The translations under genes were made by a program, and so were the position numbers. The notes beneath the pieces were generated by a model. It was not told where the DNA came from. It ran no database searches and worked only from the letters and a program-made list of their open reading frames with translations. A DNA stretch of 64,000 bases from Hypanus sabinus (Eukaryota), in the NCBI RefSeq assembly GCF_030144855.1, contig NC_082717.1:13144001-13208000 (forward strand), given 5' to 3'. Within the stretch, counting starts at the first letter, position 1; each line of letters starts with the position of its first letter. This document shows positions 29,725 to 35,275 of the stretch, in pieces.

Positions 29725-29855
29725 ATGCCCGAGGCGCAGAAATCCGCTCCCAAGAAGGGCGCCAAGAAAGCTTTGCCCAAACCATCGGGCAAGTCCGGCA
29801 AGAAACGCAGGAGGGTGAGGAAGGAGAGTTACTCCATCTACATCTACAAAGTGAT
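29725..29855 (+). pseudogene. H2B: Histone H2B 5' half, disrupted by ERV LTR
   Basis: 131 bp identical to 39634-39764 (MPEAQK...YIYKV). Switches abruptly to the LTR TGTCAGAAAC at 29856. Confidence 0.95.
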
Positions 29856-30284
29856 TGTCAGAAACACACTGAGTCTCAGCAATTTGCAGAACGGTAAACT
29901 TTATTTTTCGAGTCTGCAGAGTCGGACCCAACCAGCTCCTGCTAGATTGAGTGCCGAATTACACTTTGCACAGTTTTTTCATACCCTAGTTGTTTACGAC
30001 TTTGTGAGTTGCACCCATGTGAGGTACAGACATTCTTCCTTAATCTCATTACAAATTACAAATGTGACTACCCTTTGGCCCACTTATCAGCCTCAGCGCA
30101 TTAACACCGTTATTGTTCAATCGTTAAGCATGTCTTCCCGTTACCTGTATCGCTTCTTTAATCAGCAAGCTATTGTTTCATCCTGATTTTGCAAATTGGT
30201 TTATACGTTGCCCTGCAAGTTGCTTTGCACGTTCTTTCTGTGTCAGCACATTCTAAATGGACTCCTTAAGAATCATTTCTCTCA
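29856..30284 (-). repeat. ERV 3' LTR (LTR1, 429 bp)
   Basis: Minus strand TGAGAG...CTGACA, preceded by the PPT. AATAAA (rc TTTATT ~29900). The TATA reads TATGAAA here. Confidence 0.95.
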
Positions 30285-30303
30285 ATCCACCCTTTTTCTT
30301 TTT
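30285..30303 (-). promoter_or_regulatory. Polypurine tract
   Basis: AAAAAGAAAAAGGGTGGAT immediately 5' of the LTR on the minus strand. Confidence 0.9.
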
Positions 30304-30314
30304 AGAATGTGCTA

Positions 30315-30859
30315 TCAGTTGGGCTTTTGCCACGGGTTTACATAGGCTTCTTCCTCTAGCTCTATTTCCCTTTGTAGGAGTACCTGAACAGGATCAGCCG
30401 GGGCCCCTGGTTGCATGACTTGTCTTGCCACCCGAGCTACTAGCTCCCGCAAGCAGGGGATCAGACATGGTAGCAGAAGGAGAACCATCAATCCCCCTCC
30501 TATAACCCCTAAAGCGGTTCGCCACCAGCCTCCTGTCAACCATCGGTCCAGCCAGTCCCAATACCCCAGTGGCTTCCAGGTCTGTACGGGCACGTGGGCC
30601 AGTTTCCTTATTTTATCTGATATTTTTTGAACCACCTTTCCGTTGTCATCTATCTTTAAGCAGCAGTTGGTTAGATTAAACTTTCCACATACTCCTCCTT
30701 TTTGTTGTAGTCATAACATTTCTCGTTTACATGCGAGTGTGATACAAAGGACCCTGGAAAAACCGTCATGCCCACCCTTACCGTCGTCCTGCACTTATCA
30801 CATCCCCCTTCAGCGCTTCTCAACAATAGCAGTATATACATTACAGTCCCAAAGTTCAT
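30315..30859 (-). pseudogene. env: env, internally deleted (signal peptide/N-term SU fused out of frame to TM C-terminal half)
   Basis: MNFGTVMYILLLLRSAEG signal from 30859. After a junction at ~30698: [13 protein letters not shown] (CX6CC), [10 protein letters not shown], and a TM helix to the stop at 30315. HERV-I/ERV3-type TM. Confidence 0.88.
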
Positions 30860-31295
30860 TCTGTCCGTCTTTTGAGCTTTAGCACCATCGGGTCTTCTCC
30901 CTGGACGCAAGTCCATTCTGCACCTTCTTCGGGCTTTACGGGTCCCTTGATTCTCGCGGCGTGGGTCCACCCTTTTTCTTTTGTCCTTACTGCGGCTTCG
31001 GTGGTCAGTAGCACCTGGAATGGGCCTTCCCACTGCGGCTGTAACTTCTCTGGCTTCCAAGTCTTAATCAGGACCCAGTCACCGGGCTGAGTTCGGTGGA
31101 GTGCGAAGTCCAGAGGTGGGGTTTGTGCGAGTAACCCCTTCCTGCGCAATTCTGCAAAAGAACGAGACAGTGCCTGTAAATAGTCCCTTACAAAGACATC
31201 TCCCCCTTGCAGGGAAGGATAGCCCTCCACCTTGTTCCAATATGGAAGGCCAAACAACATTTCATAAGGGGATACTCCTATATCTTTTCGAGGAG
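30856..31295 (-). pseudogene. pol: Integrase C-terminal remnant
   Basis: TAPRKDIGVSPYEMLFG...QPGDWVLIK...WEGPFQVLLTT...GWTHAARIK. HHCC and DDE core absent. Confidence 0.9.
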
Positions 31296-34149: not shown

Positions 34150-34537
34150 TGTCAGAAACACACTGAGTCTCAGCAATTTGCAGAACGGTAAACTTTATTT
34201 TTCGAGTCTGCAGAGTCGGACCCAACCAGCTCCTGCTAGATTGAGTGCCGAATTACACTTTGCACAGTTTTTTATACCCTACATTCTTCTTTAATCTCAT
34301 TACAAAATTACAAATGTGATTACCCCTTTGGCCCACTTATCAGCCTCAGCGCATTAACACCGTTATTGTTCAATCGTTAAGCATGTCTTCCCGTTACCTG
34401 TATCGCTTCTTTAATCAGCAAGCTATTGTTTCATCCTGATTTTGCAAATTGGTTTATACGTTGCCCTGCAAGTTGCTTTGCACGTTCTTTCTGTGTCAGC
34501 ACATTCTAAATGGACTCCTTAAGAATCATTTCTCTCA
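34150..34537 (-). repeat. ERV 5'-position LTR (LTR2, 388 bp), also preceded by a PPT
   Basis: Same termini as LTR1 but lacks the 42-bp segment 29988-30029. Intact TATAAAA. PPT remnant at 34538-34551. Confidence 0.95.
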
Positions 34538-34550
34538 ATCCACCCTTTTT

Positions 34551-34961
34551 CAGATAAAATAAGGAAACTGGCCCACGTGCCCGTACAGACCTGGAAGCCA
34601 CTGGGGTATTGGGACTGGCTGGACCGATGGAGTCCATTTAGAATGTGCTGACACAGAAAGAACGTGCAAAGCAACTTTGAAACAATAGCTTGCTGATTAA
34701 AGAAGCGATACGGGTAACGGGAAGACATGCTTAACGGTTGAACAATAACGGTGTTAATGCGCTGAGGCTGATAAGTGGGCCAAAGGGGTAATCACATTTG
34801 TAATTTTGTAATGAGATTAAAGAAGAATGTAGGGTATAAAAAACTGTGCAAAGTGTAATTCGGCACTCAATCTAGCAGGAGCTGGTTGGGTCCGACTCTG
34901 CAGACTCGAAAAATAAAGTTTACCGTTCTGCAAATTGCTGAGACTCAGTGTGTTTCTGACA
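34551..34961 (+). repeat. Inverted env fragment (34551-34630) plus 5'-truncated LTR (LTR3, 34629-34961)
   Basis: Reverse complement of ~30540-30620 joined to an LTR2-type LTR ending TTTCTGACA. TATAAAA ~34835, AATAAA ~34912, ~36-bp internal deletion. Confidence 0.93.
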
Positions 34962-35230
34962 GCAACTATGCTGAGCGGGTGGGTGCTGGAGCCCCGGTCT
35001 ATCTGTCTGCCGTGCTCGAGTATCTGACGGCTGAAATCCTCGAGTTGGCTGGTAACGCGGCCCGGGACAACAAGAAGACCCGCATCATCCCCAGACACCT
35101 TCAGCTGGCCGTCCGCAACGACGAGGAGCTCAACAAGCTGCTGGGAGGGGTGACCATCGCTCAGGGCGGGGTGCTGCCCAATATCCAGGCCGTGCTGTTG
35201 CCCAAGAAAACCGGCGGTGCCAGCAAGTGA
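34962..35230 (+). pseudogene. H2A: Histone H2A 3' part (from ...NYAERVG), 5' end replaced by ERV LTR
   Basis: Matches 41102-41370 except 3 substitutions (one A>S). No in-frame ATG. Confidence 0.95.
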
Positions 35231-35259
35231 AGCGACAGATTCTGACCCAGTGACCCAAA

Positions 35260-35275
35260 GGCTCTTTTAAGAGCC
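35260..35275 (+). terminator. Histone 3' stem-loop
   Basis: GGCTCTTTTAAGAGCC downstream of the H2A stop. Confidence 0.95.

Follow-up and report, generated by a model that had tools for sequence, protein, structure and literature searches.

Aberrant retroviral integration has been described for ASLV and HIV-1, where, in the part of PMC5041404 used here, such proviruses have one end made by integrase and one made by the host, and the bad end is lengthened by copying from viral or host sequence nearby, which results in deletions or duplications; the Discussion of that paper does not describe two precise integrase-like ends around a deletion. Intermolecular strand transfer occurs (PMC12789967, in part), and the account of LTR-mediated retroposition in PMC5131818 deals, in the part used here, with mRNA capture between direct LTRs only, the word 'inverted' being absent from its main text. 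A survey of 13 cartilaginous fishes contains, in the part covered, nothing on U5/U5 or histone-targeting proviruses (PMC10435555). In the literature searched we found no natural U5/U5 provirus, for which older subscription literature may hold precedents, no description of a kilobase deletion made by integrase and precise on both sides, and no report of a histone-targeting retrovirus, most subscription papers lying outside that search. The in vitro integration of two identical ends is known, and the elements that do target multicopy genes (R2, Tx1-type, Dada and Ty3) recur at one site or in one gene class.

The window, which is the whole 64,000-nt stretch of DNA analysed (C30:13,144,001-13,208,000, in a searched genome of 4.04 Gb, probably of a cartilaginous fish to judge by its repeats), contains a 5,106-bp insert (29856-34961). 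It is a faulty copy of a dispersed ERV, with the same viral end on both sides, and it replaces the middle of a histone gene pair (Table 1). On the left, the H2B coding piece (29725-29855) shows 100% identity to the intact H2B at 39634, while the piece together with its upstream region shows 81-92% similarity to the four intact H2B paralogues; it adjoins an exact inverted U5 end at 29856. On the right, the H2A piece (34962-35230; 3 mismatches in 269 nt against the paralogue) adjoins a second exact U5 end at 34961. The cuts lie 131 nt (H2B) and 112 nt (H2A) from the respective ATG. Inspection of both host junctions revealed neither a TSD nor a U3-host junction, and for that reason the insert is not a canonical provirus.

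Table 1. Features of the window (positions 1 to 64,000 of the stretch analysed) and the other U5/U5 inserts of the family
Feature	Position or length	Strand	Remarks
H2B upstream region and CDS nt 1-131 (ATG 29725)	29527-29855	+	ends at probable integrase site
LTR1 (3' LTR, 429 bp, long U3 variant, A139/A164)	29856-30284	-	U5 CA end joined to H2B
PPT (about 30285-30304) and 3' internal region	30285-30855	-	env mostly deleted relative to longer copies
Integrase C-terminal domain remnant (Pfam MLVIN_C)	30856-31260	-	integrase core deleted in window copy
pol ORF (protease, RT, RNase H-like)	31262-33088	-	early end at internal deletion
gag ORF with internal deletion, zinc knuckle kept	33182-33778	-	ORF and comparison with longer copies
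Leader and PBS (about 34129-34146, behind 3-nt spacer)	33779-34149	-	
LTR2 (388 bp), recombinant: 5' U3 LTR1-like, 3' part LTR3-like	34150-34537	-	
Retained PPT piece preceding LTR2 (13-14 nt)	34538-34551	-	inversion joint 34550-34551
Inverted copy (81 nt) of internal sequence 30540-30620, 100% identical, rare haplotype	34550-34630	+	
LTR3 (U3-truncated, 36-nt deletion, short variant G139/G164)	34629-34961	+	U5 CA end joined to H2A
H2A nt 113-381 (34962-35230) and 3' stem-loop (35260-35275)	34962-35275	+	sequence comparison with paralogue
Intact H2B (39634-40008) and H2A (40990-41370) tandem pair	39634-41370	+	model of pre-insertion unit
L114, U5/U5 insert	74 bp		exact 5-bp TSD
L115, U5/U5 insert	459 bp		exact 5-bp TSD
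L116, U5/U5 insert	469 bp		exact 5-bp TSD
L112, U5/U5 insert	920 bp		exact 5-bp TSD
L092, U5/U5 insert	1,275 bp		exact 5-bp TSD
L021+L113, U5/U5 insert	~5.2 kb		near-full provirus and 36-nt inverted U5 arm; middle partly read; exact 5-bp TSD
L184+L185, U5/U5 insert	~6.0 kb		termini read, middle not; exact 5-bp TSD

The histone cluster is small; the 164 kb examined holds four intact H2B-H2A pairs, one H1 and one H3. In all four pairs H2B is followed by H2A on one strand, with starts 1356-1431 bp apart, and the flanks of the insert keep the order and strand of this tandem unit minus ~1.35-1.4 kb. Sites homologous to the two junctions are spaced by 1337-1412 bp in the four intact pairs, so a similar length of host DNA is missing here, the size being derived from the paralogues. 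A long target duplication was ruled out, as the region read to the left of the insert holds no H2A. For the junctions themselves we used a symmetric target profile built from 48 TSD sites of the family, with strong A/T at -3 and +8. When the intact paralogues were scored on the attacked strand, only 1.4% of H2A positions reached the score of the H2A site and only 1.1% of H2B positions that of the H2B site. Among 40 scored candidates, the H2B-H2A junction and the LTR-H2A junction occurred once each. As both junctions stand high in the target profile, integrase probably made both. An earlier note on this DNA had described exact U5 ends on H2B and H2A without a TSD or a U3-host junction, and this description is confirmed; the integrase joining at both ends and the loss of intervening host DNA that it had proposed are supported by the profile ranks and by the comparison with intact pairs, respectively.

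The RT of the window copy has MLV RT as its best PDB match (E 1.7e-123, vs. E 7e-41 for the next viral group), and the integrase tail aligns with the MLV C-terminal domain (2M9U/7JYZ). By the RT match and the MLV-type integrase domain, the family would be a gamma-like (class I) ERV. The BET-binding tail motif of gammaretroviral integrase is WX7PLK(I/L)R (PMC4027182, in part); compared with it, the tail of the window copy is a partial match, in which W, P and L agree, two changes are conservative and K is replaced by V. Three longer copies keep the same tail. CpG-island-like flanks gave a flat result (4/71 near vs. 2/71 far), and a BET-type promoter bias of the family is possible.

The family is young and widely scattered through the genome. 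We counted 907 exact U5 ends genome-wide, 508 of them (84+121+67+91+110+35; 477 positions listed) without the usual PBS start behind; these 508 include some PBS variants, and the number of insertions was therefore taken as ~500. A survey of TSDs at 39 insertions gave 29 exact 5-bp duplications, three of 4 bp, one of 5 bp with one mismatch, four irregular cases and two unassigned ones. The TSD of MLV is 4 bp. The flanks of three TSD-less copies held no shared repeat usable for sizing a deletion. One insertion (L130) is a one-ended aberrant case with a truncated U3 and a 20-bp duplication.

Besides the window, 11 outward-facing LTR pairs were examined, and 7 of them each proved to be one insert that has U5 at either terminus and is flanked by an exact 5-bp TSD. 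Such inserts make up ~1.4% of insertions, which is a lower bound, and are built from R-U5 pieces joined to leader at short homologies; the middle of the C25 insert was read in part only. One of the seven (L092) encloses an intronless, that is, spliced ferritin cDNA, whose parent gene on C79 has four exons. Its arms are inverted U5-leader-U5 units that form a 230-nt perfect terminal inverted repeat, and the right arm begins at LTR position 333, ~30 nt past a TATA-like box at 301, which points to RNA templating. Together, the spliced ferritin cDNA and the right-arm start argue that U5/U5 DNAs form in reverse transcription, before integration. From the structures and TSDs observed we infer that these DNAs enter as single molecules by concerted integration. 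Three candidates were rejected as U5/U5 inserts: a pair at C16 1.31-1.32 Mb consists of two copies that inserted independently, each having a TSD of its own; L091 is a provirus with an internal inversion that ends in U5 on one side and in U3 on the other; and C28 is a palindrome that takes in host flank. The C23 pair lies 13 kb apart, without TSD, and only its ends were read. The window insert has exact outward-facing U5 ends at both termini, like the other U5/U5 integrants, and is the sole clear U5/U5 insert without a TSD.

Read on the minus strand, the window insert has the order PPT piece, LTR2, PBS (which we take to be of the tRNA-Pro type), gag, pol, integrase tail, PPT, LTR1 and H2B. On the plus strand, from 34550, 81 nt of its own internal sequence lead into the U3-truncated LTR3, which ends with its CA at H2A nt 113. 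The copy is defective, with internal deletions in gag, the RNase H/integrase region and env compared with longer copies. The inner joint was made at short homology from pieces copied from the same element: a 2-nt microhomology was found both at the inversion joint (34550-34551) and at the jump into LTR3. The PPT bases preceding LTR2 mark a wrongly formed U3 end.

Two LTR variants had been claimed for this insert; we found three LTR copies with three haplotypes, namely A139/A164/long (LTR1), A/A/short (LTR2) and G139/G164/short (LTR3). The LTR2 haplotype occurred in 0 of 132 other LTR sequences. The LTR3 type is frequent (37/132), and its agreement with the 3' half of LTR2 therefore does little to support a shared particle. 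The leader variant of the window copy is common to a G/G/short provirus on C41, and the LTR haplotypes and the leader variant together suggest that two templates, X and Y, are mixed in the insert. Such mixed templates do occur, as the two LTRs differ in type in two of 35 ordinary proviruses. Of the copies compared with the left-arm interior, the one at C36 is colinear with it (99.7%), and the eight others are not. The 81-nt piece was present in one of 44 other copies compared (C36, L003), and a 35-mer taken from it occurs at five other places genome-wide. Judged by this haplotype, the arms are not independent: the right arm copies the rare haplotype of the left. Several other origins were ruled out, that is, A-to-G editing of LTR3 (many family members carry one or the other G allele), a simple fold-back of LTR1 (LTR3 belongs to the other type) and homologous recombination between LTRs (which would keep one U3 and one U5 end).

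We consider it probable, at roughly 0.6, that the locus arose in one event in which two U5 ends were inserted without coupling and the intervening host DNA disappeared. This would have been a single retrotransposition or infection by a young gamma-like ERV whose particle carried two variant RNAs, X and Y, both tRNA-primed. One product would be an X/Y recombinant, near-full-length DNA whose U3 end retained PPT bases and hence would be a poor integrase substrate; the other would be a short Y-type piece with a U5 end. Their inner ends would have been joined at the PPT via template switches at short microhomology, in reverse transcription or in host repair. Each of the two good U5 ends would then have been inserted by integrase on its own, one into H2B and the other into H2A of the same tandem pair, on opposite strands and ~1.35-1.4 kb apart; the host DNA lying between the two insertion sites would have been lost in repair. 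The occurrence of U5/U5 DNAs with a normal 5-bp TSD in seven other inserts, the identity of the 81-nt right-arm piece with the left arm in a rare haplotype, and the existence of a one-ended aberrant insertion in the family (L130) all support such an event. Against it counts that the TSD present in 7/7 other U5/U5 inserts is absent at the window locus. The earlier note had mentioned two one-ended U5 events as a side alternative, and this comes close to the explanation that we prefer. As for the wider claim, we lean slightly towards a germline retrovirus that regularly makes two-U5 DNAs, among them mini-elements resembling transposons and mRNA retrocopies flanked by inverted repeats, all of which its integrase would accept in vivo; at the window locus two U5 ends would have undergone uncoupled strand transfer into two adjacent active genes, at equivalent promoter-proximal positions, and integrase would have made a kilobase deletion that is precise on both sides.

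A different course, which we regard as unlikely although it is the strongest competitor, starts from two independent ordinary integrations, in H2B on the minus strand and in H2A on the plus strand, which formed a head-to-head inverted repeat; multi-step template-switching repair then collapsed it, with loss of the spacer and most of the second provirus. Such a course needs local clustering, not targeting. Long inverted repeats are unstable, both sites are integrase-like by the target profile, and the haplotypes of LTR1 and LTR3 differ. The family also clusters locally, with four verified independent pairs within ~10 kb vs. 0.6 expected at random, so two separate insertions are not far-fetched. 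Yet a simple collapse predicts that LTR2 equals LTR1, that LTR2 has no preceding PPT and that the right arm has its own internal haplotype, and all three predictions fail. Moreover, head-to-head pairs within 1.5 kb are expected at 0.02 at random, perhaps 0.2 with clustering, and no other family insertion was found in a histone gene.

An assembly chimera or fold-back read artefact is improbable. The inversion joint is unique in the genome, and the 7.4-kb palindrome at C28, centred in a family LTR, could itself be artefactual; at the window locus, however, H2B and H2A in the flanks are ordered and oriented as in the tandem unit of the cluster, each end is an exact CA terminus at a site that fits the target profile, and the arms are not mirror copies, as their haplotypes differ and deletions are present.

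The position of both ends in histone coding sequence had led the earlier note to propose a retrovirus that targets histone genes. We find this highly improbable, and at the level of genes it is refuted. Among 272 canonical histone stem-loops counted genome-wide by pattern search, which misses histone genes whose stem-loop deviates, the H1 of the window among them, a single one has a U5 end of the family within 450-500 bp, and this is the window locus; no U3 end was found within that distance genome-wide. In 125 other U5 host flanks no histone was detected (0/125) by tblastn with H1, H2A, H2B and H3 or, for H4, of which the window contains no copy, by short motifs and stem-loop patterns only. 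The tabulation of LTR-family flanks that had been suggested thus revealed no enrichment in histone genes, and neither the H2B nor the H2A site was hit again, the single match being the window locus. It is true that ~0.013 events are expected at random in histone CDS, with a target size that is a lower bound, and that 7 ends fall in the histone-rich part of C81 (about 4.5-17 Mb), where 1.6 would be expected (post hoc P 0.001). However, none of these seven insertions lies inside a histone gene (two were read over 5-10 kb and five over ~0.6 kb on the U5 side), and family ends are denser in C1 42-57 Mb. The argument that two hits in histone genes are improbable by chance rests on two independent integrations; since two-U5 DNAs of the family integrate as one molecule, a single event suffices at the window locus, and one event in a window picked as odd is no evidence of targeting. 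In the explanation that we prefer, the histone location would be that of a single event, perhaps aided by an MLV-like bias for active chromatin and not due to sequence targeting. The family is not a multicopy-gene-targeting element.

A further alternative is that a U5/U5 DNA entered one gene in a normal, concerted way, with a TSD, and that the host later suffered a deletion whose limit coincides with the other LTR end. This can draw on the TSD-bearing U5/U5 inserts of the family but hardly merits credence, as it requires a base-exact deletion at a CA end without microhomology and a second site that fits the integrase profile by chance (about 1%).

These results remove a false lead, as there is no histone-targeting vertebrate retrovirus here. 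Natural two-U5 integrants with perfect TSDs show that the intasome can work in vivo without a U3 end, and reverse transcription in a particle with two RNAs can yield inverted products, including captured host mRNA. To annotation tools, U5/U5 elements would resemble DNA transposons, and finders that rely on direct LTR repeats would probably miss them. If the uncoupled insertion of two U5 ends is the true course, integrase alone can delete kilobases of host DNA and leave clean ends, which bears on the interpretation of integration-site data of gammaretroviral vectors.

Compared with known systems, the family resembles MLV and gammaretroviral class I ERVs in its RT, which is closest to that of MLV, in an MLVIN_C domain with a W-X7-P tail, in a weak, palindromic target consensus, and in its TG...CA LTRs, PPT and PBS; it differs in a TSD of mostly 5 bp, in a tail motif that matches only partially and in its share of U5/U5 integrants. 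Like R2, Tx1-type elements, Dada and Ty3, the window insert sits inside a multicopy gene family, but unlike them its family shows one histone event in ~500 and no recurrence. The ferritin insert (L092) shares with LTR-mediated retroposition, as the main text of PMC5131818 presents it, a host mRNA copy caught between viral pieces at microhomologies, whereas its arms are inverted and not direct LTRs. A close parallel is the aberrant one-ended integration of ASLV and HIV-1 in the part of PMC5041404 used here, of which L130 is a typical case within the family. There, as is proposed for the window insert, integrase makes poor use of one viral end, nearby viral sequence is copied via short homology at the inner joints, and flanking host DNA is deleted or duplicated. 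The window insert departs from those cases in having exact U5 CA ends at both host junctions, at integrase-preferred sites and without U3-host contact, where in ASLV and HIV-1 the second junction is host-made. In sum, its origin would correspond to aberrant retroviral integration with an integrase of gamma-like type, except that it lacks the host-made second junction that defines such integration.

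At the H2B-LTR1 junction, the cut H2B frame runs on through the antisense LTR1 as an ORF of 153 AA, in which the H2B N-terminal tail is followed by approximately 110 LTR-derived residues. This ORF sits behind the H2B promoter, and its product is predicted from sequence. An older, inverted duplicate of the H2A 3′ end together with downstream DNA (95% identity) was also observed, with the H2A part truncated inside the coding sequence. Across the 164-kb region around the window, which contains H2B-H2A pairs, no H4-like start was detected.

Features of the window and of loci carrying copies of the ERV family (L-numbers); G000:C denotes contigs of the same assembly
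Feature	Location	Strand
Minisatellites, 36-37-bp and 43-bp units	window 14330-14542, 17989-18482, 25947-26208
H2B-LTR1 ORF	window 29725-30186	+
Inverted H2A duplicate	window 38567-39134	-
Single H1 and H3 genes, variant stem-loops	window 53842-54471 and 56088-56498
Ferritin-carrying insert	L092:1656-2930 (G000:C1:96.29 Mb)
Parent ferritin gene	C79, 5.83 Mb
Two-U5 insert	L114:1501-1574 (G000:C24:180.55 Mb)
Tandem arrays	G000:C16:108.808-108.827 Mb; L010
Palindrome	L178-L179 (G000:C28:156.31-156.32 Mb)
Leader-R/U5 joint	L091, L092, L112, L115, L116, L176, L184, L185, L190

Recurrently in copies of the family, the leader is joined to an R/U5 segment at polyadenylation-signal microhomology, which is consistent with misdirected first strand transfer. 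In the L091 and L176 proviruses the U5 and U3 ends are both normal and the TSD is 5 bp, but the interior is inverted. At L092, inverted U5-leader-U5 arms enclose a spliced ferritin cDNA (a stretch of 168 AA, Pfam Ferritin), and the insert is flanked by a 5-bp TSD. The parent gene has four exons; many other processed ferritin copies are present.

Other copies were irregular in different ways. Tandem arrays share PPT-LTR-PBS units; five LTRs spaced by ~4.6 kb were found within a single TSD flanking the whole array. The L130 provirus is a typical one-ended aberrant integration: its U3 end is truncated, and 20 bp of host DNA are duplicated. In the L177 provirus the 5′ part and host DNA appear to be inverted together, and the TSD was found as its reverse complement. 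The palindrome, with arms of at least 7.4 kb each (99.1% identical) that take in host flank and a centre inside an LTR, is either a real inverted duplication or an artefact.

At L114, two U5 ends alone make up the whole 74-bp insert, which has a 5-bp TSD and is a minimal, MITE-like integrase substrate.
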